Source of the DNA: an uncultured Candidatus Saccharibacteria bacterium
GTDB lineage: Bacteria; Patescibacteriota; Minisyncoccia; Phycocordibacterales; CAZPGN01
Direction of reading: 5' to 3'
DNA: 64,000 bases
NCBI GenBank assembly: GCA_964586635.1
Contig: CAZPGN010000001.1
Coordinates: 72,932-136,931 of the forward strand
The notes under the pieces were generated by a model. That model saw only the letters and a program-made list of their open reading frames with translations. It was not told where the DNA came from and searched no databases. The translations under genes and the position numbers were made by a program. Shown here piece by piece: positions 3,029-64,000 of the stretch (position 1 is its first letter; each line of letters begins with the position of its first letter).

Positions 3029-3051
3029 ATGAAGGCTCCTGACCCCTTCAC
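3029..3051 (-). repeat. REP-like hairpin repeat copy (ATGAAGGCTCCTGACCCCTTCAc); overlaps the gnd stop codon and acts as a terminator-like hairpin plus T-run on the minus strand
   Basis: Stem GAAGG/CCTTC with 9-nt loop CTCCTGACC. The minus-strand reading GAAGGGGTCAGGAGCCTTCATTTT is followed by a T run. An identical 23-mer occurs at four more sites in the window. Confidence 0.8.
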
Positions 3052-3944
3052 CCCTGGATACTGTGCCCTCCGAACATATTCCGCAAGGCCGAAATCACCC
3101 TACCAGTGAAGCTGGGTCTCTCCGCAGATCGAAGGCGGAAATTGAAAGATTCTTCGATAACGGGAACAGGGACGCCAAGCTCCCTCGCTGTCTCAACTGT
3201 CCACTGACCCTCTCCAGTGTGAGCGACGGAGCCGGAAACACCCTCAAGTTCAACTCCGAATGATCGAAATGCGTCACCAAGCCAGCCAATGAGGCGGGAT
3301 TCAACTATGCTCCCGTGGTTGTAGACGCTCGCAACAGTGTTGAGGTCTACGCTGAAGGGTGCCCTCTTCAGAACTTCCATTCCCTCGGCAATCGCTTGCA
3401 TCATCCCATATTCGATACCGTTGTGAACCATCTTCACGAAATGCCCCGCACCCGATGGCCCCATATACCCATATCCATTTGGAAGCGCGAGGTCACGGAA
3501 CAAGTTCTCATGTCGCTCGAATACCTCGTGTGCGCCTCCAATCATCATGCATGCTCCATTCCTCGCCGCCAACACGCCGCCAGAGACACCGATATCAAGA
3601 TACTCCACCCCCTTGTCCGCCGCGTCTTTCGCGCGACGCATAGAATCCTTGAAGAAGGAGTTACCGCCGTCGATGACCATATCGCCGCCCTGAAGGAGGG
3701 GTAAGAGTTCAGAAAAAACACTACCAACGGCGGCATTTGGCACCATAACCCACACAAGACGAGGAGCGGCCAAGGAAGCGACGAGGTCGACGATATTAGC
3801 CGTGCCTTTTATGCCGACTACATTCGCAACAGCTTTCACCGATTCCGTATTCTTGTCTGTTGCCACAACTTCGTATCCCTTTTCCTGCAAACGAAGCACC
3901 ATGTTGTGTCCCATTTTCCCTAGTCCGATATAGCCGATCTGCAT
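3048..3944 (-). CDS. gnd: 6-phosphogluconate dehydrogenase (decarboxylating), short NAD(P)-binding form
   Basis: N-terminus MQIGYIGLGKMGHNMVLRL is a Rossmann GxGxxG motif. 298 aa, typical of the short Gnd/YqeC-like 6PGDH family. Confidence 0.8.
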   Translation of the reverse strand: MQIGYIGLGKMGHNMVLRLQEKGYEVVATDKNTESVKAVANVVGIKGTANIVDLVASLAAPRLVWVMVPNAAVGSVFSELLPLLQGGDMVIDGGNSFFKDSMRRAKDAADKGVEYLDIGVSGGVLAARNGACMMIGGAHEVFERHENLFRDLALPNGYGYMGPSGAGHFVKMVHNGIEYGMMQAIAEGMEVLKRAPFSVDLNTVASVYNHGSIVESRLIGWLGDAFRSFGVELEGVSGSVAHTGEGQWTVETARELGVPVPVIEESFNFRLRSAERPSFTGRVISALRNMFGGHSIQG

Positions 3945-11990: not shown

Positions 11991-12803
11991 TTACAATGGG
12001 CTTTTGATCTTCTTCAATCTTGGATTGGTCACTTGTGTATATACTTGTGTGGTTCGTATGTTGCTATGCCCGAGCAACTCTTGTACATAGCGTACATCAG
12101 TGCCATTTTCTAGTAAGTGTGTAGCAAACGAATGACGCAACGAATGAAAGGTTGCCAATTTGCTAACTTTCGCACTTGTTAAACTTTTACGAAACATTTT
12201 TTGCAGAGATGTTGTCGTAAGCTTGCCACCTCGATTAGAGGCAAAAACAAAATCACTCATATTTTTGCCTGCGATTATATTTCGCAAATCGTTTTGTAAT
12301 TTTTCTGGCAACACACTAATCCTGTCTTTCTTGCCTTTTGCTCCCTTGATGTGCACAACAAGCTCATTGATGTCCAAATCTGCTACTTTTAGTTCTACAA
12401 CCTCGCTGACTCTCATGCCACAAGCATAACCAAGCGAAATCATCAGTTTATATTTTGAATTATCAGTTACTTCAATAATTTTCCCAATTTCCGCCCGCGA
12501 TAACACGACGGGCAACTTTTTGTTTCTCTTCGCAAATTTTAGGTCAATCTTCTGCGGGTCTTTTAAGACTTCAGCATATAAATATTTCACGGCATTGAGC
12601 GCCAGATTGATGGTTTGCGGGGATTGTTTTCGTTTGTGTTTGTCTAGCAGAAAGTCCTCAACCGCTTTTTGCTTATCTTTAATTCCTTTTTCTTTAGAAA
12701 AACTGATATACTCTCTTATATAGAGTAAGTATGCTTTACGAGTCTTTGTGGAGTAATTTCTAAGTTTTAAAATTCTTTCAGTTTTGTCTAAAATATTTTC
12801 CAT
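11991..12803 (-). CDS. site-specific tyrosine recombinase (phage integrase / XerC/D family)
   Basis: The C-terminal catalytic region HSLRHSFATHLLENGTDVRYVQELLGHSNIRTTQVYTQV has the R...HxxR...Y signature with the catalytic Tyr. The N-terminal SAM-like core-binding domain is present. The start is trimmed to MENILDK. Confidence 0.8.
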   Translation of the reverse strand: MENILDKTERILKLRNYSTKTRKAYLLYIREYISFSKEKGIKDKQKAVEDFLLDKHKRKQSPQTINLALNAVKYLYAEVLKDPQKIDLKFAKRNKKLPVVLSRAEIGKIIEVTDNSKYKLMISLGYACGMRVSEVVELKVADLDINELVVHIKGAKGKKDRISVLPEKLQNDLRNIIAGKNMSDFVFASNRGGKLTTTSLQKMFRKSLTSAKVSKLATFHSLRHSFATHLLENGTDVRYVQELLGHSNIRTTQVYTQVTNPRLKKIKSPL

Positions 12804-12925
12804 AATCAAATAGTAGCAAAGTTTGCATAACAAACAAGATATTGCTACAATATGATCACATAGTTCGTATAAAAACCAGTTGTACGAAATTGAAAAATTT
12901 TTTTAACTATTAATAAATTATTTTT

Positions 12926-13261
12926 ATGTCTCAAGTCACCATCAAACAAGCTCAACAAATAGTCGATGACTGGATTAAAAGTATTGGTGTCCGCTATTTT
13001 TCTGAAATGACCCAGCTGGCTCAATTAACGGAGGAAGTGGGCGAAGTCGCACGAATAGTCTCAAGAACTTATGGCGATCAAAGTTTTAAAAAGACGGATG
13101 ACAAAAATTTGTCTGATGAATTGGCGGATGTATTATTCGTGCTAATCTGTCTTGCTAATCAAACAGGCGTTGACTTAACCGAGGCATTTCAGAAAAATAT
13201 GGATAAAAAAACGAACAGAGATAAAGACCGACATAAAAATAATTTAAAATTAAAGAAGTAA
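12926..13261 (+). CDS. MazG-like nucleoside triphosphate pyrophosphohydrolase
   Basis: 111 aa. EEVGEVARIV…DELADVLFVLICLAN is the MazG/NTP-PPase EExxE…D motif. Confidence 0.65.
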   Translation: MSQVTIKQAQQIVDDWIKSIGVRYFSEMTQLAQLTEEVGEVARIVSRTYGDQSFKKTDDKNLSDELADVLFVLICLANQTGVDLTEAFQKNMDKKTNRDKDRHKNNLKLKK

Positions 13262-13461
13262 AAATTTTTCAACATCGCACAACACGGCATATCTGGTTTC
13301 GCTACGCTACACCCAAATTGCTACGCAACTTCAGATATGTCGAAACGTTATACGCCATAATAAAAAGCCTCTATTGATTTTTTATAATAATTTTGGCAAT
13401 TTATTAGGTGAGGTCGAGATAACTTCAACAATTCAACATTAATTATCTAACATAAAAAATT

Positions 13462-13938
13462 ATGCCTAAAAAACCAGAAACATTTGGAGGATTTTCTCCT
13501 GAACCAGGGAGCAAAGATGAAGAAACAAGACAAGTTGAAAGTCTTGAGGAATGGCAAAAATATTGCGAAGAAATGTCAGAGGCGCGCGGAGAACCAAAAG
13601 AAGAAGATTGGGATAGAATAATGCAAGACGAAATGGAGTCAGAAGCGAGAGACGTAGAGGTTTATATTAGAAGAGCAAGATTAGCAGGAGACACGCGTAC
13701 TATTAGAGAAATAATAGATGATAAGGATGAGTTGGAAATTAAATTAAATGCATATACGGAACAAAGAAAAAAAGATGGTACCTATACTAATCCTTGGAAT
13801 ATACTCGTAGATTTTATGAAAGAGAATGTTTCTTCGTATGCTGCTTATCTCCAAAAGAGACAAGAAGAGGACGCTGAAGCCGATCCGTGGAATATCTATC
13901 TCGAATGGAAAGTTGGAAAGGACTTGAAAGATAAATAA
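13462..13938 (+). CDS. hypothetical highly acidic protein (Glu/Asp-rich)
   Basis: 158 aa, strongly acidic (EEWQKYCEEMSEARGEPKEEDWDRIMQDEMESEARD…). No recognisable family. Confidence 0.45.
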   Translation: MPKKPETFGGFSPEPGSKDEETRQVESLEEWQKYCEEMSEARGEPKEEDWDRIMQDEMESEARDVEVYIRRARLAGDTRTIREIIDDKDELEIKLNAYTEQRKKDGTYTNPWNILVDFMKENVSSYAAYLQKRQEEDAEADPWNIYLEWKVGKDLKDK

Positions 13939-14139
13939 ATTGCCAAAATTCTTAAACGAATAAGGAAAGCGGCTTTTTATTACAGCGTATAACAATGAAT
14001 ATGCGGTTCATGAAATTGCGCTTCTTGATTTTTCATGGAGGCGCAATTTCTTTCACCCATATTTGCCTCCGCTTCGCTACAGCAAACATCGCATATTCAT
14101 GAACGTTAGGCGAAATTTCATTTTTTACATCTATCACAT

Positions 14140-14844
14140 ATGCCCGAAAATTTTGAACCTACAATAGAACAAACTAAGCCATATTGGCAAAGAATGCGAG
14201 AGTTAGAAGCTCAACTTTTTCCTGAATTTAGGGATGAGCATTTTTGTATTGATTCACCAGAGACAAACAATTTTTATTTCGCCCCGAATGTACATTTCAA
14301 AAAAGATTTGGTAACAGAAGCAGATGTCGAAAATTTTAGAAAAGATCCAAAGCGACAAATGTTAAGCGTCGGGTCTGGTCCTGCATATTTAGAAAGACTG
14401 TTGGTACATTTAGGTGTAAACAAAGACAACATCATCCTTGCAGATAAAGAGCCGAGGGATTTGCCGACCGACTTCAAAACTAAAATTTTCGACATGTTTG
14501 GAGAATGGCCTGAATTCGAAGATGATCAAAAATTTGATCTAATAATATTTCCAGAAAATCCGTCAATCAATGTTCACTATGACTACGGCGAGGAGCGAAT
14601 TCAGGCGTTCACCTCACTCTTTGCAAAAGCATTGCAGCACTTGAAGCCAGAGGGCGAAATAAAAATTACTGGTAATCCAAACAGTGAAGAGATAACGGAA
14701 AAAGTTGAGCATGAGCTAAGGAAAGCAGGTTATGATGTTACGGTTCAAAATTTTTCCAACAAAGGAAAGGAATCATTAATTGTAGTAAAAAATGAAACAT
14801 CGCCTAACAGCGTGTATGAGGTTCAAGAAAAAGTGCGTAAATAA
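14140..14844 (+). CDS. putative class I SAM-dependent methyltransferase-like protein
   Basis: Motif I-like LSVGSGPAYLERLL, post-I acidic IILADKEP and motif II-like FDLIIFPEN are arranged in Rossmann-MTase order. Confidence 0.4.
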   Translation: MPENFEPTIEQTKPYWQRMRELEAQLFPEFRDEHFCIDSPETNNFYFAPNVHFKKDLVTEADVENFRKDPKRQMLSVGSGPAYLERLLVHLGVNKDNIILADKEPRDLPTDFKTKIFDMFGEWPEFEDDQKFDLIIFPENPSINVHYDYGEERIQAFTSLFAKALQHLKPEGEIKITGNPNSEEITEKVEHELRKAGYDVTVQNFSNKGKESLIVVKNETSPNSVYEVQEKVRK

Positions 14845-15066
14845 TTTTCAAAGGTTGCATTTTTTCTTTCACCCAAATTGCGCTGACGATAATCAGAGTT
14901 TAGTGATACAATGAAAGTATTGAGATAAGCAATGTTTAATCTAAATAACACGGCGCAACTTCGCATCATGCGGAAACGTTATGCGCCATAATAAAAAGCC
15001 GCTCATAAATTTGACTTATTTTTCCTTTAGGATATAATAGAATCGTTACAATTCACTTCAAACTAT

Positions 15067-15285
15067 ATGCGCAAAATTGACTTAAAAAATGTGGTGTGGA
15101 AAGAAGGAAAATATTATGTTTCCTGGAACCTAAACACGGCGATTTCTAGTTTTGGCGACACCAAAAAAGAAGCCCTTTTGGCGCTCCAAGAAGCATTAGA
15201 ATTATATTTTGAGGACATCCCAATTTCCAAAATAAACAAAGTGGAACGACCCGACTTGGTCCCATTTGTTTTTCAGCATGCCTAG
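15067..15285 (+). CDS. hicB: HicB-family antitoxin (UPF0150-like)
   Basis: 72 aa. It is immediately upstream of, and overlaps, a HicA-like toxin. The WKEGKYYVSWNLN…GDTKKEALLALQEALELYFE pattern matches the HicB N-terminal domain. Confidence 0.55.
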   Translation: MRKIDLKNVVWKEGKYYVSWNLNTAISSFGDTKKEALLALQEALELYFEDIPISKINKVERPDLVPFVFQHA

Positions 15286-15499
15286 ACCTATTCCCCTGAA
15301 ACAGGTAATCCGAGTCCTTAGAGATAAGGGCTTCTTTTTTGTGTCGCAGAAAGGTTCACACGCAAAGTTTCGTAAACCAGGAAGTCCAACTCGTACTGTA
15401 ATTGTAAAAATGGCAAAGAAAGAAGTACCGTACGGAACCTTTCAGTCGATTTTGCTTCAATCAGAATTAAAAGAAAGTGATTTTCGAGAGGAAAAATAA
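15278..15499 (+). CDS. hicA: HicA-family mRNA interferase toxin
   Basis: MPRPIPLKQVIRVLRDKGFFFVSQKGSHAKFRKPGSPTRTVIVKMAKKEVPYGTFQSIL matches the HicA/YcfA fold (KGSHxxF…P.H). The ATG overlaps the hicB stop (ATGCCTAG). Confidence 0.7.
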   Translation: MPRPIPLKQVIRVLRDKGFFFVSQKGSHAKFRKPGSPTRTVIVKMAKKEVPYGTFQSILLQSELKESDFREEK

Positions 15500-15534
15500 G
15501 TCAAACTTCAGATATGCGGATACGTTGTGTCGGG

Positions 15535-15557
15535 TCAAAGGTGTCAGGAACCTTTGA
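15535..15557. repeat. degenerate REP-like hairpin (TCAAAGGTGTCAGGAACCTTTGA) near the right end of the island
   Basis: Stem TCAAAGG/CCTTTGA. The loop TGTCAGGAA resembles the loop GGTCAGGAG of the canonical repeat. Confidence 0.3.
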
Positions 15558-15893
15558 CCAATAATGTTTAGTTCGTAATGCAATCAATAGTATAGCACTT
15601 AAGAAAAAAGAAAGCCTCGCGGATGCGAGGCGATCGATGAATCTCGGCGCATAAAACTGAAACCAAGGAGGTGAAACTAGTCTGCAGCGATTGAAGCGCC
15701 GAGAACTAAATGAACTAATTCGAGATTTTAATGCGAGGGCAATTAGCTTTCGGAAAACTGATTCTCACTGTAAAACTCTGCCCTCGCACTAGTAGTTTAG
15801 CATGGGATATCGAGCAGTCAATTACATTGCAATGTGAACAATAATGCGTAGAATGAAATCGGTACTGAACATTCAACCACGCGAGGAGGATGT

Positions 15894-16229
15894 ATGCAGT
15901 ATGAGAGATGGCTCTTCGTGGTGATTGCGCTCGCAGGGTATGTTCTCACGACGGACCCCGCGCATGGTTTTCAGCCAATTCCGCCTTACAGGACAACGGT
16001 GCAAAGTGCTGCGCCTCCCATGATGCGCGCAATCGCCGAGACCATTCCAGAGCGGTGCCGCTCACCTCGACCCGGGCGCGGTGAGGGCTATTTCATGTTC
16101 ATCCGCGTTGCTCCACATTGTGCGTGCGGACATGAACTCACGCTTCGAAACCCATTCAGGATGCGCCTGAATGTGCACTGCTTCGTTCACAAATTCCCTG
16201 AACCAATGACGGACTGCATTCGCCATTGA
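15894..16229 (+). CDS. hypothetical protein (signal-anchor-like N-terminus)
   Basis: 111-aa ORF preceded by AGGAGGATG. Hydrophobic N-terminus MQYERWLFVVIALAGYVLT. Confidence 0.35.
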   Translation: MQYERWLFVVIALAGYVLTTDPAHGFQPIPPYRTTVQSAAPPMMRAIAETIPERCRSPRPGRGEGYFMFIRVAPHCACGHELTLRNPFRMRLNVHCFVHKFPEPMTDCIRH

Positions 16230-34029: not shown

Positions 34030-34812
34030 TCAAGCCTGTGGCACGGTGGCGCTAGGGATGCTCTGCGGTTCGGAAACGGTTCGACCAATTCCATTTTTCT
34101 GCGCTAGTAATTTATAGATATACGCGCTGGCGAGCATTGTAGTCGGAATCGTTATAAAAAGTCCGACTATAAAAGCTAGGGCGCCCAGAATATTCAAAAT
34201 GGCCGCGACAATCATTAGTCTAACGAGAAGCCAGACATGCCCTTCGGTCGCATTCCATGACTTCCTAACGGCAGACAGACCCCAATCACCGGTGTCTACA
34301 AAAATATATGCGGGCATAAATCCAAGGCGGAGTTCTATATACACCCCCGCTATAACAATTGCGGCCTCAACGACAATGAACAAGGCCACATTTCCAGTAA
34401 AGAGCACGGTTAATGAAATGAGGAACGCTACGGCGACAATCAATTGCGCGGGAAGACTTGCAAGCAAAACTGTCCATAAATATTTTGGCACAAGGCGCCA
34501 ATGCCGAACAAGGTCGGATAGACGTGCGTCCGCTCCGTACGCAAACGAAACAGAAATATGAGTCAGGCCGACGCTTACGAGAAATGTAATGAAAGTTGCA
34601 ATGAGCACAAGAAGTAGAGAAATGAAATTCGTTATGATGGTTTCGGGATAATTCACAAAATACGACCCAAGTGGGACCGAAAGGAGCCGGGGCGCATAAT
34701 AAAGAAACCCTGATAGAAGCGCGACCTTCACGAAAAACCACAAATTTTTCATCGTGGTATCGTAACCAAACCTGATTGCACTTGAAACCTGTAATGATTC
34801 GTTCGTATTCAT
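34030..34812 (-). CDS. DUF975-like polytopic membrane protein
   Basis: 260 aa with about 6 TM segments. Its architecture resembles the DUF975/YciC-like family. The family assignment is tentative. Confidence 0.4.
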   Translation of the reverse strand: MNTNESLQVSSAIRFGYDTTMKNLWFFVKVALLSGFLYYAPRLLSVPLGSYFVNYPETIITNFISLLLVLIATFITFLVSVGLTHISVSFAYGADARLSDLVRHWRLVPKYLWTVLLASLPAQLIVAVAFLISLTVLFTGNVALFIVVEAAIVIAGVYIELRLGFMPAYIFVDTGDWGLSAVRKSWNATEGHVWLLVRLMIVAAILNILGALAFIVGLFITIPTTMLASAYIYKLLAQKNGIGRTVSEPQSIPSATVPQA

Positions 34813-34869
34813 ATATGCATATTATCATTTATGTGCCAATCTGCACATGCAACCGCATTGGCATAGAAA

Positions 34870-34892
34870 ATGAAGGCTCCTGACCCCTTCAT
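34870..34892 (-). repeat. REP-like hairpin repeat copy (ATGAAGGCTCCTGACCCCTTCAT)
   Basis: Identical 23-mer. The minus-strand reading GAAGGGGTCAGGAGCCTTCATTTTCT is followed by a T run and lies downstream of tRNA-Tyr on the minus strand. Confidence 0.8.
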
Positions 34893-34987
34893 CGGGATTC
34901 TCTCCTTACAGGAGCAGTACCCCGATTGGTTTTTTTTCTTCGTCTACGGACTCGAAAAAATACTCAATCGGGCTTCGAATCCCTCAC

Positions 34988-35006: not shown

Positions 35007-35035
35007 TCCTACGCAAAACGCCATTCTGTCGTTTA

Positions 35036-35119
35036 TGCGTAGGGAGGGATTCGAACCCCCGAAGCCGCTAGGGCGACTGGTCTACAGCCAGTTGCGATTG
35101 ACCACTCCGCCACCTACGC
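35036..35119 (-). tRNA. tRNA-Tyr (anticodon GTA), type II long variable arm
   Basis: On the minus strand: acceptor GCGTAGG/CCTACGC, anticodon arm ACTGG-CTGTAGA-CCAGT, variable hairpin CGCCCTAGCGGC, T arm GGGGG-TTCGAAT-CCCTC, discriminator A. No CCA encoded. Confidence 0.85.
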
Positions 35120-35162
35120 ATGCAGGGAGCAGTATAACATCGATTTGCAGTTCAAATCAAAA

Positions 35163-41972: not shown

Positions 41973-42044
41973 GACCACGTGGCGAAGTGGTAACGCAGCG
42001 GTCTGCAAAACCGCAACGCGCGGGTTCGATTCCCGCCGTGGTCT
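41973..42044 (+). tRNA. tRNA-Cys (anticodon GCA)
   Basis: Acceptor GACCACG/CGTGGTC, discriminator U (typical Cys identity element). Anticodon arm GCGGT-CTGCAAA-ACCGC. T arm GCGGG-TTCGATT-CCCGC. Confidence 0.85.
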
Positions 42045-42338
42045 TAAGGCGGGAATCGAAGCCGACCCGAGAAAGCTAAACTGCTTTAGGTTTCTCGGGC
42101 GGCAGGCTCCGAAGGAGACTGTCTCGATGCGCCAAGAGGCGCCAGAGACAGTCGGGTGAGGAGGATTCCCGCCGTGGTCTTAAGGCGGGAATCGAAGCCG
42201 ACCCGAGAAAGCTAAACTGCTTTAGGTTTCTCGGGCGGCAGGCTCCGAAGGAGACTGTCTCGATGCGCCAAGAGGCGCCAGAGACAGTCGGGTGAGGAGG
42301 ATTCCCGCCGTGGTCTTAAGGCGGGAATCGAAGCCGAC
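42045..42338 (+). repeat. tandem direct repeat: 136-nt unit x2 plus a 22-nt third partial copy, beginning right after the tRNA-Cys discriminator; each unit ends with a 17-nt copy of the tRNA-Cys 3-prime end (GATTCCCGCCGTGGTCT)
   Basis: Units 42045..42180 and 42181..42316 are identical by eye; partial copy 42317..42338. Each unit has a 10-bp closing stem (GGCGGGAATC…GATTCCCGCC) and long internal hairpins (GCCGACCCGAGAAA…TTTCTCGGGCGGC; GACTGTCTCGATGCGCC…GGCGCCAGAGACAGTC). Confidence 0.9.
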
Positions 42339-42439: not shown

Positions 42440-42450
42440 TTTTTGATGGG

Positions 42451-42473
42451 ATGAAGGGGTCAGGAGCCTTCAT
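42451..42473 (+). repeat. REP-like hairpin repeat copy (ATGAAGGGGTCAGGAGCCTTCAT) followed by TTTTG; terminator-like, after the tRNA-Leu(TAA)
   Basis: Plus-orientation copy of the 23-mer; …CCTTCATTTTGTC. Confidence 0.8.
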
Positions 42474-42628
42474 TTTGTCTGCCTATCGCGGTTGGAATAA
42501 ATGAAATAATCAGGGCACTTGTCAAGTACCTGAAGTTTGCTGATGAAAAGAAGCAGCCTTTTACGAAATACTTCGGATGCTATGAAAGTTTGAGAGACGA
42601 TGATTCGTGTGTTATTTTGTATTGACAT

Positions 42629-59660: not shown

Positions 59661-60521
59661 GTGTTACAAATGCTGGATAGGATGGTTCCCATAGGCGAGC
59701 CGACAAAAAACTCCCTTATTGAAAGGAGAAGCAGGGAGGCTGAAGGATGTTCGGGGGTGGGGTGCGGACAATGCCTTGGCAGAAACGCCTTGAGCATCGG
59801 GCTTGGTTTTGTGAGCGCCGCAAGCTCTTTCGCGACGAATACCTTCGGTTTGTTTGGCGCTTCGGGTGGTTTCGCCATGACAATGACAACCTGCATCGCC
59901 GCCGTAGGCGTTGGAGCAATTGTCTTTCTCCTGATGCCGCACGGTCTTGCCCATTTCGTTGTTGCTCGGTGGCGCGCGCGCAGAACCCTTTCGGGGAAAG
60001 CTCATGTGTTCCTGGTTGAGGCGGTTGACTTCATGTCAAGCCAGTTCGATGAACGCATCGCGCGACTTACGAGTGCCGGCAACCAAAGACTGCTTCAGGT
60101 TCAACACCTGCTTAAGCAAGCCGCATTGGTCAGGAACAGAGTTTCGACTGACGAGGCGATATCGCCAGAACAATCTTCACTCACCGAAGAAGCCCTAAGA
60201 CAAGTCGAGCTTCTCGGCTTATACGAGAAAGCATGTCAATCATTCCTCAACCGGATAGCAGAGAAACAGACTGCCTTCCATAACCGCATGAAAGACATTC
60301 GCGCTCGACTTAATTGTATCGCCGCGTTTGACGAATTACCGCTCCCCATAGAGCGAGATACCGTTCAATATGTGGCATTGCTCGAATATGAAATGCACGA
60401 ATTGCTCGAGAGCGGCAACTCTGCGATTGCTGAAATTGCAGAGACGGCTCTTCCGGAGCCGCAATCCAGAATCGAGCAAAAGGAGCTAGAATCTCGTGGC
60501 CTCTTGGGGGCTGCAAAATGA
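59661..60521 (+). CDS. hypothetical membrane protein with a C-terminal coiled-coil region
   Basis: Good SD (AAAGGAG, 9 nt upstream). Two hydrophobic segments, then a helical Q/E/L-rich C-terminus. No family recognised. Confidence 0.45.
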   Translation: MLQMLDRMVPIGEPTKNSLIERRSREAEGCSGVGCGQCLGRNALSIGLGFVSAASSFATNTFGLFGASGGFAMTMTTCIAAVGVGAIVFLLMPHGLAHFVVARWRARRTLSGKAHVFLVEAVDFMSSQFDERIARLTSAGNQRLLQVQHLLKQAALVRNRVSTDEAISPEQSSLTEEALRQVELLGLYEKACQSFLNRIAEKQTAFHNRMKDIRARLNCIAAFDELPLPIERDTVQYVALLEYEMHELLESGNSAIAEIAETALPEPQSRIEQKELESRGLLGAAK

Positions 60522-60583
60522 ATCCAAACTGGTCTTTCCCGCAATCCCTGACATAACCACTTGCCAGGGATTCTTCCTTTGGG

Positions 60584-60791
60584 ATGAAGGGGTCAGGAGC
60601 CTTCATAATACCGCCTCGCGCAAAACATTTTCAAAAGCAAGATAATCAGCGTCAGTTTGGAAAATTGGTAGTCGTGCGTTAGCGCGATTGATGATATGGT
60701 AAACGACGTCTCCGACATCGGTGCGTGGTGGGCGTGGCATACTGTTCAGTGTAGCACAAAATGGATATGAAGGCTCCTGACCCCTTCATTC
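60584..60791. mobile_element. REPIN-like element: two copies of the 23-bp REP hairpin in inverted orientation (60584..60606 and 60769..60791) enclosing a truncated RAYT/IS200-like transposase remnant
   Basis: ATGAAGGGGTCAGGAGCCTTCAT at 60584 and its exact reverse complement at 60769. The 162-bp interior encodes the N-terminal 45 aa of a Y1 (HUH) transposase. Confidence 0.55.
60603..60740 (-). pseudogene. truncated REP-associated tyrosine transposase (RAYT) / IS200-IS605 TnpA-like N-terminal fragment (45 aa; HUH motif and catalytic Tyr missing)
   Basis: Hand translation of the minus strand gives MPRPPRTDVGDVVYHIINRANARLPIFQTDADYLAFENVLREAVL*. This matches the conserved N-terminus of COG1943/Y1_Tnp proteins (MPR.AR…HH...RG..R..IF.DD.DY..FL). 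The stop lies inside the flanking REP hairpin. Confidence 0.5.
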
Positions 60792-60852
60792 CTAGCTTGC
60801 ACAGATATGTCTTTTCGCGTATATTTGAGCGGCATTATCAATATAATCATTA

Positions 60853-62004
60853 TTGGTTAACGGTATGAATACAGATACCATAACCTCCACCGCCCTCGCC
60901 TCGGAAACAACTGGCACACGGCCAGATCGACAGAAAGGCGTAGAAAAAAATGAGCGGATGGAGCAAATTTTAAAAGACGCGCCGCTCCCGCCAGCGCCGG
61001 GCGATCTTGCGGTCGGCAGAGTGATAGGTCACGACAAACTTACTCTCTATATAAATCTCGAACCCTTTGGGACCGGAATCATTTTTGGACGGGAGTATCT
61101 CGGCACCCGCGATCTCATAAAGAAAATAAAAATTGGCGATGAAATAACTGCAAAAGTAATCGAGGGCGAAAATGAAAATGGCTACGTCGAACTCTCCTTA
61201 AAGGAGGCCCGTCAGGCTGTCATTTGGAAGGATGCAGAACAAGCAATCAAGGAAAAGCGCATACTCGAACTCTCTATTAAAGATGCCAACAAGGGCGGGC
61301 TCCTCATCGAGTGGCAAGGCATTCTCGGATTCTTACCCGCATCTCAACTTTCTTCAGACCATTACCCTCGTGTGGCGGACGGCGACAAGGATAAGATAAT
61401 GGAGGAACTTAAAAAACTCATCGGCAAGACAATTTCAGTATCAATTATCACCGCAGACCCAAAAGAAGAAAAAATAATTTTTTCTGAAAAGGCCGGCAAT
61501 GAACAAGACAAGCATGAGATCATCGCGAAATACAACCTGGGAGATGTTTTGAGCGGTACCGTCACGGGCGTCGTGGATTTTGGAGTTTTCTTGAAGCTTG
61601 AGGAAGGTCTCGAGGGGCTTGTCCATATCTCGGAAATCGACTGGTCGCTCGTTGATGATCCCAAGACGCGCTTTAAGGTTGGCGATTCTGTGCAGGTAAA
61701 GGTCATCGAAATTAAGGACAGCAAAATCTCTCTCTCCATTAAAGCCCTAAAGGAAAATCCTTGGAAAAAGGCGGCTGAACGATACAACAAGGGCGCGGAA
61801 GTGAGCGGCGTTGTCATCAAGTACAACAGACACGGCGCCCTCGTCTCGATCGAAGAAGGTATAGCGGGATTAGTGCATGTATCCGAATTCGCCTCTCCCG
61901 AGGAACTCCGGCAGACGCTTGAACTCGGAAAAACCTATCGCTTCACCATCAATCTGTTCGACCCAAAAGAACAGCGCATGACATTGTCATATATTACGCA
62001 ATAA
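60853..62004 (+). CDS. rpsA: 30S ribosomal protein S1 (four S1 domains)
   Basis: Repeated S1 OB-fold motifs (GDLAVGRVIG…, GGLLIEWQGILGFLPASQL, GDVLSGTVTGVVDFGVFLKLEEGLEGLVHISEI, GAEVSGVVIKYNRHGALVSIEEGIAGLVHVSEF). Confidence 0.85.
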   Translation: MVNGMNTDTITSTALASETTGTRPDRQKGVEKNERMEQILKDAPLPPAPGDLAVGRVIGHDKLTLYINLEPFGTGIIFGREYLGTRDLIKKIKIGDEITAKVIEGENENGYVELSLKEARQAVIWKDAEQAIKEKRILELSIKDANKGGLLIEWQGILGFLPASQLSSDHYPRVADGDKDKIMEELKKLIGKTISVSIITADPKEEKIIFSEKAGNEQDKHEIIAKYNLGDVLSGTVTGVVDFGVFLKLEEGLEGLVHISEIDWSLVDDPKTRFKVGDSVQVKVIEIKDSKISLSIKALKENPWKKAAERYNKGAEVSGVVIKYNRHGALVSIEEGIAGLVHVSEFASPEELRQTLELGKTYRFTINLFDPKEQRMTLSYITQ

Positions 62005-62607
62005 TTACTCGCATTTGTTGAATCGATTCATTGCCACCGATAATCCCTCCTCAATAATAGTATCGATAGCTTCGGCGGTTCGCCGCAGAATGACGGGAAG
62101 CTTGGCCGCTTCTCGCGCGGAAAATCGCCCAAGCACGAACTGCTCCACGGCATCTTTTCCGAGTGGCTTATGAGCTACTCCCTGGTCGTCGGTCGGCGCG
62201 AGACCGATGCGGATACGACAAAATGCATTCGTTGCGAGCGCGTCAATGATGGATTGCACGCCACGATGTCCTGCCGAACCTCTATCGAACGAAATTTTAA
62301 TCGAACCGAACGGCACATCGATATCATCGTGGCACACGACAAGCGCCCTGCCATCAAAGTCGCCGGACACAATGCGCCGCACAGCGTCGCCCGACAAATT
62401 CATAGAGGTTTGAGGAAGCACAAGCATAACGGACAGTCCATGCATGGCGCCTTCCGAAATTTGCGCCGCGCGACGAGGGTCAATATGCCAGTCCGAAAAC
62501 TCCGGCCGCGCGGCGCGATACGACTCGAGCGCCATGCGGCCGACATTATGGCGCGTCTTTGCATATTGCTCGTCAGGATTTCCGAGGCCGACAATGGTGT
62601 ATATCAC
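62005..62607 (-). CDS. pth: peptidyl-tRNA hydrolase
   Basis: MIYTIVGLGNPDEQYAKTRHNVGRM is the Pth N-terminal signature (GLGNPG..Y..TRHN.G). DDIDVPFGSIKISFDRGSAGHRG is also present. Confidence 0.85.
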   Translation of the reverse strand: MIYTIVGLGNPDEQYAKTRHNVGRMALESYRAARPEFSDWHIDPRRAAQISEGAMHGLSVMLVLPQTSMNLSGDAVRRIVSGDFDGRALVVCHDDIDVPFGSIKISFDRGSAGHRGVQSIIDALATNAFCRIRIGLAPTDDQGVAHKPLGKDAVEQFVLGRFSAREAAKLPVILRRTAEAIDTIIEEGLSVAMNRFNKCE

Positions 62608-62711
62608 ATATATAGCGTACAGGCAGACAACTCTGCGTGCAACAAAAACTCTATTTTGTACAAAGGCAAAGCGATGTAGTACAATTGCGTGGTGGAAACG
62701 GAAAAAAATAC

Positions 62712-63320
62712 ATGACCGAAACGCAAGATCACCATCATGACGACGATGAAAGTGGTGGTTCTTTTGTGATCGAGATCGTAAAGTTTGCTATCATTGCCTT
62801 GCTTGTGATTTACCCCGTCCGTGCCTATGTCGCCCAACCGTACATCGTACTCGGCGAATCGATGGAGCCTACCTTTCACGAACGGGAGTATCTCATCGTA
62901 GACAGACTCTCGTATCGCTTCGATGAACCAGAACGCGGAGCAGTCATCATATTCAACTTTCCCTTAAGCGAAAAGAGTCCTCCTGAACGCTTTATCAAGC
63001 GCATCATAGGGCTTCCGGGAGAAACTATCGAGTTTAAGAATGGTAAGCTGTTTATCACTACTTCGGGCGGAGGACGCTTCCAATTCGTCGAATCATACCT
63101 CGAATTCACCACCTCCGGCGATTCCATGGCACGGAAACTGGGACCGAACGAGTATTTTGTTGCGGGTGATAATCGTCCCGAAAGCTCTGACTCGCGCATC
63201 TGGGGTCCCATAACCCGCGACGATATTGTGGGGAGAGTCTACCTGCGCCTATTTCCATTCGGACGAGTAGGATATCTTCCAGGCGACCTGCGAACAAACC
63301 AAAGCAGAACTGCAAACTAA
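62712..63320 (+). CDS. lepB: signal peptidase I
   Basis: TM anchor, then VLGESMEPTF (catalytic Ser box), RIIGLPGETIEF, and GDNRPESSDSRIWGPI (box E with GDNR…S.DSR). Confidence 0.8.
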   Translation: MTETQDHHHDDDESGGSFVIEIVKFAIIALLVIYPVRAYVAQPYIVLGESMEPTFHEREYLIVDRLSYRFDEPERGAVIIFNFPLSEKSPPERFIKRIIGLPGETIEFKNGKLFITTSGGGRFQFVESYLEFTTSGDSMARKLGPNEYFVAGDNRPESSDSRIWGPITRDDIVGRVYLRLFPFGRVGYLPGDLRTNQSRTAN

Positions 63321-63360
63321 CAACAATAATCCATGTCGGAGAAAAAATCGATGAAACAAG

Positions 63361-64000
63361 ATAAGCTCCCACGCCGCCCCACGGGCACACGAGACCTTGT
63401 TGGCGAACATTACCTGCTCGTACAAGGTTTTTTTGAGAAAGCCGCAGAAATAGCTCTGTATTATGATTTTTCTCCGATCGAAACTCCAACCCTCGAGGAA
63501 TCAGCAATATTCATGACCGGACTCGGCGAAGATACCGACATAGTTAGCAAGGAAATGTATACCCTCAAGACGAAGGGCGGAAGTCAACTTGCCATGCGGC
63601 CAGAGGGCACCGCAGGCGTCATGCGCGCATATATCGAGAATGGCATGCAAAGTCTTCCCCAGCCGGTAAAGCTCTACTACGCGGGTTCTTTTTTTAGACA
63701 CGAACGCCCTCAGCGCGGCAGGTGGCGAGAGTTCAAACAGTTCGGCATTGAAGTGCTCGGTGCGCCGAAGAGCATCGCCGATGCTATGGTCGTTATGATT
63801 CTCATGAAAATTCTTGAGGAGGCAGGTTGTTCCCGTCTCTCGGTACAACTCAACTCAATCGGCGACCGCGATTGCCGCACCAATTATCGCCGCGCGCTTG
63901 TCGCATATTATCGAAAACACATAAGCGATCTATGCGAAGACTGCAAGGAGCGTCTTAAAACAAACCCTCTTCGCTTGCTCGATTGCAAGAATGAGAAGTG
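63361..64000 (+). CDS. hisS: histidine--tRNA ligase, partial (continues beyond window end)
   Basis: Frame from the ATG at 63361: MKQDKLPRRPTGTRDLVGEHY…MRPEGTAGVMRAY…YYAGSFFRHERPQRGRWREFKQFGIEVLG. Class II motifs 1 and 2 of HisRS. Confidence 0.8.

Follow-up and report, generated by a model that had tools for sequence, protein, structure and literature searches.

A dispersed hairpin repeat and a decayed RAYT-like transposase gene in a genome of the candidate phyla radiation

Genes for transposases resembling RAYTs (tyrosine transposases linked to repetitive extragenic palindromes, REPs) and flanked by terminal inverted repeats (TIRs), many of which share the sequence GGGGWSAS, have been described as TIRYTs; self-complementary TIRs occur among them, as do TIRs that make up moderately abundant families with solo, dimeric or clustered members (Di Nocera et al. 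2013, PMC3733652). TIRYTs have been equated with subclass 2.1 of TnpA-Y1, identical to group 1 of Bertels. The proteins of this subclass, whose median length is 238 aa, have a C-terminal extension and the motifs NHVH/NH[YF]H, W[EQ]/FQ and YIELNP/Y[IV]HLNP, and no REP-like structure was reported near their genes (Quentin et al. 2018, PMC6006769). The 16-mers flanking group 1 RAYT genes are only modestly repeated (Bertels et al. 2017, PMC5581495). The words Parcubacteria and Patescibacteria do not occur in the study of Quentin et al. (PMC6006769), and no paper in the literature searched linked bacteria of the candidate phyla radiation (CPR) with REP, RAYT or TIRYT elements. Here, a stretch of 64,000 nucleotides of contig CAZPGN010000001.1 (the window) was analyzed, whose proteins are recorded as proteins of Candidatus Vogelbacteria (CPR/Patescibacteria) metagenome-assembled genomes (MAGs; MBI1975726, MBI1975753 and MBI1975754). 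The window contained a genuine family of dispersed hairpin repeats of an already known kind, accompanied in this CPR genome by a decayed transposase gene. The repeat very probably represents the TIR, or REP-type hairpin, of a TIRYT/TIRtron transposase, which is a RAYT-like enzyme of the Y1 (HUH) class.

A pattern search allowing up to three mismatches located the 23-mer ATGAAGGCTCCTGACCCCTTCAT at five sites in the window, and 100 dinucleotide shuffles gave no match. Four copies were exact in the orientation of the 23-mer (34870-34892 and 60767-60789 on the plus strand, 42451-42473 and 60584-60606 on the minus strand), the copy at 3029-3051 (plus strand) had a single mismatch, the final T to C, and the 19-nt core GAAGGCTCCTGACCCCTTC was exact in all five. 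The initial annotation was thus correct about the repeat family but not about the identity of its five copies, and it had placed the last one at 60769..60791, two positions off. Folding confirmed the 7-bp stem and 9-nt loop described there. Three of the seven pairs were G-C, and RNA folding gave -7.2 kcal/mol for the GGUCAGGAG orientation against -5.7 for the opposite one, with corresponding DNA values of -4.5 and -4.1. A G-rich 5' extension (GGGA or GGA, read in the GGTCAG orientation) was also conserved, and the two longest identical stretches among the copies were 27 nt; the 26-nt unit GGGATGAAGGGGTCAGGAGCCTTCAT is a better definition of the repeat than the 23-mer. In the alignment of 13 type A copies, which came from loci of four distinct sources (the window together with the near-identical L013 strain, L010/L009, L008, and L012), a 21-nt core was invariant and the similarity ended abruptly on both sides. 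All five window copies lay outside the bodies of open reading frames (ORFs), copy 1 overlapping only the gnd stop codon. Each of them opened a short ORF of 26-98 codons beginning with MKAPDPF; three such ORFs had been noticed before, and they are indeed spurious by-products of the repeat. The features of the family in the window are as follows, the strand of each copy being given in the GGTCAG orientation.

3029..3054, minus strand: copy 1, type A, reading GGGGTGAAGGGGTCAGGAGCCTTCAT on the minus strand, with one mismatch to the 23-mer; TTTT next.
15533..15559, plus strand: type B hairpin with a stem of 9 bp, GGTCAAAGG TGTCAGGAA CCTTTGACC, within an integron-like island of low GC.
34846..34869, minus strand: 3' flank of copy 2 (TTTTnTnTGCCnATnGCGGTTG), common to copy 3.
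34870..34893, minus strand: copy 2, exact type A, then TTTT.
42447..42473, plus strand: copy 3, exact type A, reading TGGGATGAAGGGGTCAGGAGCCTTCAT, then TTTT.
42474..42497, plus strand: 3' flank of copy 3, common to copy 2.
60580..60606, plus strand: copy 4, exact type A, the 3' terminal repeat of the minus-strand transposase stub, giving the stub its TGA stop.
60603..60740, minus strand: RAYT/TIRYT-type Y1 transposase stub, reading MPRPPRTDVGDVVYHIINRANARLPIFQTDADYLAFENVLREAVL*.
60741..60766, minus strand: 26-nt leader from the upstream repeat to the ATG of the stub (ATCCATTTTGTGCTACACTGAACAGT), aligned with the upstream regions of homologues.
60767..60792, minus strand: copy 5, exact type A, the upstream terminal repeat of the stub.

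The link between the repeat and a transposase was provided by the stub. Residues 1-44 of an intact 225-aa homologue matched 60609-60740 (minus strand) in a tblastn search with 79.5% identity (E 5e-20), and no second match in the window had an E value below 1. The stub began 26 nt after copy 5 and entered copy 4 directly, which supplied its stop codon. Five independent contigs contained this junction with copy 4. The arms of copies 4 and 5, inverted relative to each other, are 158 nt apart. Since these two copies bound the stub, they represent the end repeats, in inverted orientation, of a transposase gene that is dead. The leader between copy 5 and the stub aligned with a TG-n-TAnAnT (extended -10-like) segment upstream of the intact homologues. 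Because both the HUH motif and the catalytic Tyr are absent, the stub is non-functional. The copy at 60584 had been taken for the terminator of the ORF at 59661; it lies 62 nt after that ORF and is really the end repeat of the stub. With the cognate RAYT-type stub between copies 4 and 5, and with intact homologues flanked by the same repeat, the earlier description of a REP-like dispersed hairpin family proved right.

Related contigs with the same unit were recovered by a metagenome scan for the 19-mer. In L010, which is identical to L011 over the region, a 225-aa ORF had two direct 26-mer copies upstream and one inverted copy downstream, and the inverted 3' copy contained the TGA stop of the ORF. 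The two direct copies formed a 50-nt duplication upstream of the transposase gene. The ORF matched Pfam Y1_Tnp (E 1.3e-17), and its best NCBIfam family was the REP-associated tyrosine transposase, at 56.4 bits against 24 bits for IS200 and below the equivalog cutoff of 80 bits of NF047646 (REP_Tyr_transpos). An AlphaFold model of the protein built from 18 sequences had a pLDDT of 87. Among PDB folds, the model agreed best with that of the E. coli RAYT in complex with a REP hairpin (4ER8; E 5e-8, TMt 0.71), which ranked ahead of the ISDra2 and IS608 TnpA structures; the sequence search of the PDB returned ISDra2 TnpA only (E 2e-3), and the E. coli RAYT surfaced in the fold comparison only. A C-terminal remnant of the gene, the last 47 codons, was found in L008 fused to an upstream repeat copy.

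The transposase family comprised 6509 homologues at E <= 1e-5, and those with names came mostly from Paceibacterota, Vogelbacteria, Falkowbacteria or the 'Patescibacteria group'. The motifs NHWH (HUH), YQGRYKSF and RYVERN[A/P] were conserved in 17 homologues. The proteins were 224-226 aa long with a C-terminal extension of about 100 aa, for which the model showed short helices and which, in the 17 members, had no Pfam match even at E <= 1. The C-terminal sequence GRPKKGS was conserved, and in most homologue loci its final codons and the stop were encoded by the 3' repeat. In L016 (10655-10683) and L018, it was the end of the GRPKKGS tail and the TGA stop that the 3' terminal repeat encoded, so that the protein end and the DNA signal are constrained together. 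By eye, the tail (alignment columns 218-224) resembled an AT-hook. No tnpB was adjacent to the transposase in any fetched locus.

Homologue loci at 55-78% identity had the same architecture throughout, and each had its own hairpin. Inverted repeats flanking the gene, the 3' one overlapping the gene end, were found in L010, L013, L014, L016, L018 and L019. The hairpins of these lineages were composed as follows.

L013: stem ATGAAGG, loop GGTCAGGAG.
L014 and L015: stem AATGG, loop GGTCAGCCA.
L019: stem AATGG, loop GGTCAGCCA, imperfect.
L016 and L017: stem AAAAAGG, loop TGTCAGGAA.
L018: stem AAAAGG, loop GGTCAGGTA.

Among 17 distinct hairpins, 86.6% of the stem cells were paired compared with 73% after shuffling, a value reached by none of 500 shuffles but biased upward, as some of the rows had been collected with a filter of at least four of seven pairs. 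Changes on both sides were seen in four of the seven stem pairs, and GG-GTCAG-...-C was invariant in the 17 hairpins. The core GGGGTCAG at the stem-loop junction was fixed in type A, L014, L018 and L019, and type B (window 15535 and L016) carried GGTGTCAG, one position off GGGGWSAS. The hairpin at 15535-15557 reads TCAAAGG TGTCAGGAA CCTTTGA, with a stem that extends to 9 bp (15533-15559), and had been regarded as a diverged copy of the 23-mer. Its 19 central nt recur without change in the terminal repeats of a different TIRYT lineage (L016/L017), which makes the hairpin a second TIR type rather than a decayed copy of type A. Near this hairpin, tblastn with six homologues found no second transposase, the stub at 60.6 kb being the sole match.

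The window encodes ClpB, a gnd-like gene, rpsA, a short IF-2, eight dispersed tRNAs and a 2402-aa surface protein. In the closest available relatives by ClpB, L020 (74% identity) and L021 (73%), the order RBFA / IF-2 / aminotransferase / protease / ClpB / tRNA-Tyr is retained, as is the pair tRNA-Cys / tRNA-Leu(taa). No GTCAG hairpin was found at these syntenic loci, neither after tRNA-Tyr nor after tRNA-Leu(taa), so the copies at the two tRNA genes of the window are lineage-specific insertions. The tRNA-Tyr of L021 had a canonical hairpin next to it, TTGCCC-tttt-GGGCAA-ttttt. In other relatives, the same 26-mer followed other tRNA genes, namely tRNA-Gln in L012 and, as a doublet, tRNA-Pro in L009. 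Doublets were confined to relatives (L009, with a 27-nt spacer, L003, L006 and L007), the dispersed copies in the window being solo. The sequence after the copies was CATTTT at 3029, 34870 and 42451 only, ATAATA at 60584 and ATATCC at 60767. Copies 2 and 3 have 24 nt of 3' flank in common, and copy 1 and the transposase leader share a TG-n-T-n-CACT segment, which indicates that the copied unit was sometimes longer than the hairpin. The scan of viral contigs for the 19-mer gave no match, and that of a reference-genome collection without the source species gave only three, near chance. The matches in L001 and L002 apparently lie in coding sequence and look like chance, and the third, in L003, belongs to an inverted doublet. 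Rfam returned nothing but tRNAs, both for the whole window at the gathering threshold and for the surroundings of copy 3 at E <= 10.

Compared with the described systems, the locus agreed best with the TIRYT/TIRtron kind. Features in common with this kind are a C-terminally extended, RAYT-like Y1 HUH transposase of about 224 aa, a gene framed at a short, fixed distance by inverted repeats of which the 3' one overlaps the gene end, a core GGGGTCAG that fits the GGGGWSAS consensus, and a self-complementary repeat forming a small dispersed family with solo copies and doublets. The locus differs in its CPR/Patescibacteria host and in the reduction of the gene in the window to a stub. Placement in subclass 2.1 is likely on the protein sequences, not proven, and three features deviate: NHWH and YVERN[A/P] occur here in place of NH[VYF]H and Y[IV]xLNP, YQ being similar but not identical; the C-terminal part has no helix-turn-helix (HTH) or DnaA-like Pfam domain (Bac_DnaA_C, HTH_23, HTH_28); and the TIR is a clean covarying hairpin, whereas Quentin et al. 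found none that was REP-like. Classical REP/BIME-RAYT systems of E. coli and Pseudomonas are similar in their short extragenic palindromic hairpins with copies at gene 3' ends, in a transposase gene that is apparently single- or low-copy in the contigs and flanked by inverted copies, and in the best fold match, E. coli TnpA-REP with REP (4ER8). They differ in that the loop here has 9 nt of conserved sequence, the copies seen are far fewer than the tens to hundreds per genome of those systems (5 in the 64-kb window, 5 in a related contig of 244 kb), and the protein is longer and below the NCBIfam RAYT equivalog cutoff. The doublets of L009 resemble REPINs, in contrast to the solo copies in the window, which are not REPINs. 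The insertion sequences (ISs) of the IS200/IS605 family (IS608, ISDra2) share the Y1 HUH core (PF01797) and the recognition of DNA hairpins at the element ends. However, their ends are not inverted repeats of each other, and they carry the gene in several identical copies, often with tnpB, whereas here only the hairpin disperses, the window holds one stub and no tnpB, and the sequence match to ISDra2 TnpA reached only E 2e-3.

Beyond the anatomy of the unit, its link with the gene, the covariation of the stems and the absence at syntenic sites, which were observed directly, the way in which the repeat spreads can be proposed from better studied enzymes. The transposase would recognize the hairpin on single-stranded DNA through the stem and the conserved loop bases, and would cut and rejoin next to it, giving rise to solo copies, doublets, adjacent deletions and rearrangements. 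Copies would persist where they are harmless, that is, at the 3' ends of genes and tRNAs, and some GGUCAGGAG-oriented copies with a trailing U-tract may incidentally weaken read-through or protect 3' ends. We infer recognition on single-stranded DNA and mobilization by the transposase by analogy with the biochemistry of IS608/ISDra2 TnpA and E. coli TnpA-REP. To our knowledge, no member of the TIRYTs has been characterized biochemically, and this weighs against the assignment together with several other points. No intact transposase was found in the window and both gene copies seen in the population are defective, which makes current mobility in this genome doubtful. The copy number is low, with five copies in the 64-kb window and five in a 244-kb related contig. 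The covariation percentage carries the bias stated above. The GTAG/CGTC tag of classical REPs is absent, the flank being GGG(A)/GGA in 13 copies, and as neither this tag nor the NCBIfam cutoff is matched, membership in the classical REP class fails.

The defective genes also bear on the reading of the family as a relic, that is, as neutral fossils of a transposase now extinct in the genome, with no present activity or function. It is a sub-case of the TIRYT assignment and no true alternative to it, and we regard it as possible, with the balance tilting against it. The 44-codon stub, the frameshifted second copy with a 47-nt deletion and the low copy number are in its favor. However, the copies are still near-perfect, four being exact and one having a single change, and the 21-mer is unchanged between genomes with transposases that diverge by 20-28%. 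Moreover, the genome was seen in part, and an intact transposase copy may be present elsewhere in it.

The second gene copy was found in a sister MAG, GCA_016177055.1. Look-ups of identical proteins to follow the source contig past the window led only to short per-run contigs or to this MAG. Its contig 17 (L013) is 99.94% identical to window 60607-64000 and has the order pth / rpsA / repeat, a near-full-length gene with a 47-nt deletion and a frameshift, and an inverted repeat. The stub and copy 4 are found on contig 16 of that MAG (L028), which matches window 60749-48933 with 100% identity. The 183-nt segment 60607-60789, composed of the repeat, the 26-nt leader and codons 1-44, thus occurred in two contexts (L013 7154-7336 and L028 1-143), and the 5' segments of contigs 16 and 17 differed by two single-nucleotide polymorphisms. 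To judge from these sequences, the two contexts may reflect separate loci of a single genome or the co-existence of two strains, and where the window runs across the segment, its join may be either a true variant of a strain or a product of assembly. Both defective gene copies have the same unusual 47-nt deletion junction, GTA|TT, and the stub reaches copy 4 two bases later, a coincidence without an explanation here. Per-run contigs had breaks 32 nt inside the stub and 7 nt beyond copy 5. Independent short-read contigs terminated within 6-32 nt of copies 1, 4 and 5 (the ends of L004/L005 and L026/L027 and the starts of L022/L024 and L029-L031), and the hairpins are therefore assembly break points. 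The sequence next to these three copies may be heterogeneous in the population.

The genes next to the copies are relevant to the claim of the initial annotation that the repeat doubles as terminators. The TGA stop of the gnd-like gene (3048-3050) was confirmed to lie within the stem of copy 1, in the 5' arm, and a pgi-like gene follows downstream in the same direction. Copy 3 is located 10 nt downstream of tRNA-Leu(taa), and a tRNA-Lys gene with its own promoter-like site follows 155 nt beyond it. For copy 2, the distance from the upstream tRNA-Tyr gene (35035-35120, minus strand) is 142 nt, and the ORF 34030-34812 follows 57 nt downstream of it. This copy is thus not in the stated position directly 3' of tRNA-Tyr. 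Beside copy 2, the plus strand at 34893-34940 forms a long hairpin, ATCGGG...CTCCT-tac-AGGAG...CCCGAT, followed by T8; it is terminator-like, yet no plus-strand gene leads into it. Between tRNA-Cys and tRNA-Leu(taa), 42028-42338 is a perfect 136-nt tandem repeat of about 2.3 copies, whose unit begins with the last 17 nt of tRNA-Cys and holds two strong hairpins, with no Rfam match. The spacing of these two tRNA genes in relatives is 23 nt (L021) and 546 nt (L020).

Like Rho-independent terminators, three copies consist of a hairpin and TTTT and are co-oriented with the upstream gene or tRNA; unlike them, the stem is weak, the 9-nt loop is conserved in sequence and the T-tract is inconstant. 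If the hairpins were primarily such terminators or 3'-end stabilizers selected at the gnd and tRNA ends, their likeness would reflect one optimal hairpin. In line with this explanation, the solo copies 1-3 and the copy in L012 all have the GGUCAGGAG sense co-oriented with the upstream gene or tRNA, TTTT directly follows copies 1-3, the RNA hairpin is the more stable in the gene-sense orientation, and the mismatch of copy 1 retains a G-U pair in GGUCAGGAG-sense RNA. The terminator scan found no other hairpin between tRNA-Leu(taa) and the promoter-like site of tRNA-Lys, and a passage in PMC3733652 discusses REPs as possible terminators. However, the terminator-like sites of that scan, which takes loops of 3-8 nt, do not include the hairpin, owing to its 9-nt loop and to only three G-C pairs in seven. 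A fixed 9-nt loop is unnecessary for termination, yet it is conserved across loci from the four sources. T-tracts are absent from copies 4 and 5 and from most copies in relatives, and those of copies 2 and 3 are not independent, since they are part of the common 24-nt flank and were inherited with the copy. The element is missing at the syntenic sites in L020/L021, where the tRNA-Tyr of L021 has its canonical hairpin instead. The orientation agreement rests on four of four solo copies only (p about 0.06-0.12), and the transposase link accounts for the family without termination. A primary origin as terminators is hence improbable. The doubling as terminators did not follow from our results either, given the weak hairpin, the T-tract at three of five copies and the absence at syntenic tRNA sites; the data argue weakly for a terminator role, which is possible and unproven, and a secondary weak terminator or 3'-protective effect is rather doubtful. 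It is unlikely that the TIRYT hairpin has been domesticated in Vogelbacteria, with perfectly conserved copies maintained by selection after transposase decay as terminators or 3' protectors of tRNA and housekeeping genes of a minimal genome (in the GGUCAGGAG orientation with a U-tract), and also drives recent rearrangements among near-identical strains.

A further explanation, in which the 7-9-7 inverted repeats would be operator sites of a dimeric regulator with a regulon including gnd/pgi, tRNAs and rpsA, is very improbable. The repeat is indeed palindromic and strictly conserved. Copy 5 is about 65-75 nt upstream of rpsA, which is on the other strand, and adjoins a promoter-like TTGCAC-17-TATATT there. 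The upstream repeats of intact transposase genes lie at about the -35 position of a TG-n-TATAAT-like box, so that binding of the transposase could repress its own gene. However, three of the five copies are at gene 3' ends and not at promoters, the asymmetric loop is conserved as strongly as the arms, and the gene associated with the repeat is that of a transposase and not of a regulator. The stems covary while still pairing, which argues for recognition of a hairpin rather than of duplex half-sites. A CRISPR-like or tandem array was rejected because the direct copies in L010 are the 50-nt duplication mentioned above, an uptake-sequence-like signal because of the low density and the transposase link, and a Shine-Dalgarno/anti-Shine-Dalgarno reading of the loop (AGGAG/CTCCT) because no start codon lies at a suitable distance.

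As TIRs of a RAYT-like transposase, the repeats extend REP/TIR-type hairpins and TIRYT transposases to CPR/Patescibacteria, whose genomes are usually described as very small. For a transposase class in which REP-like structures had been reported absent, they also provide a clean covarying hairpin whose GGGGTCAG core is fixed, and thereby a concrete DNA substrate for the first TIRYT biochemistry. For annotation, MKAPDPF-type ORFs are to be treated as artefacts of the repeat, the stop codons of gnd and the transposase as supplied by it, and breaks of short-read contigs as expected at its copies.

The type B hairpin is located in a low-GC island (11991-16229, GC 0.36-0.39 versus about 0.50), directly after the last of the island repeats. 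A tyrosine recombinase at 11991-12833 (minus strand) had the integron integrase TIGR02249 as its best NCBIfam family (219.7 bits versus a cutoff of 265). Small ORFs diverge from it, including MazG, a methyltransferase-like ORF and one that is HicA-like by eye, with repeated segments of about 45 nt between them (13327-13381, 14968-15012, 15504-15526 and, inverted, 13968-13993). From its layout, the island resembles a cassette array of the integron kind, here in a CPR genome.

Downstream of tRNA-Gln in L012 (3365-3410), a type A hairpin has a second one, AATGT GGTCAGCCA GCATT, within 10 nt after it, the landing site being common to type A and another TIR type. No transposase homologue was present in the fetched flanks of three high-GC contigs (GC 0.62-0.68), L003 (325-400), L006 (1090-1135) and L007 (1040-1146), that carried inverted doublets with a AAGGGGTCAGGAGCCTT core. 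L003 belongs to a Planctomycetales MAG, and one of the doublets sits between tRNA genes; the shared core suggests that related transposases in other phyla may use the same TIR core.

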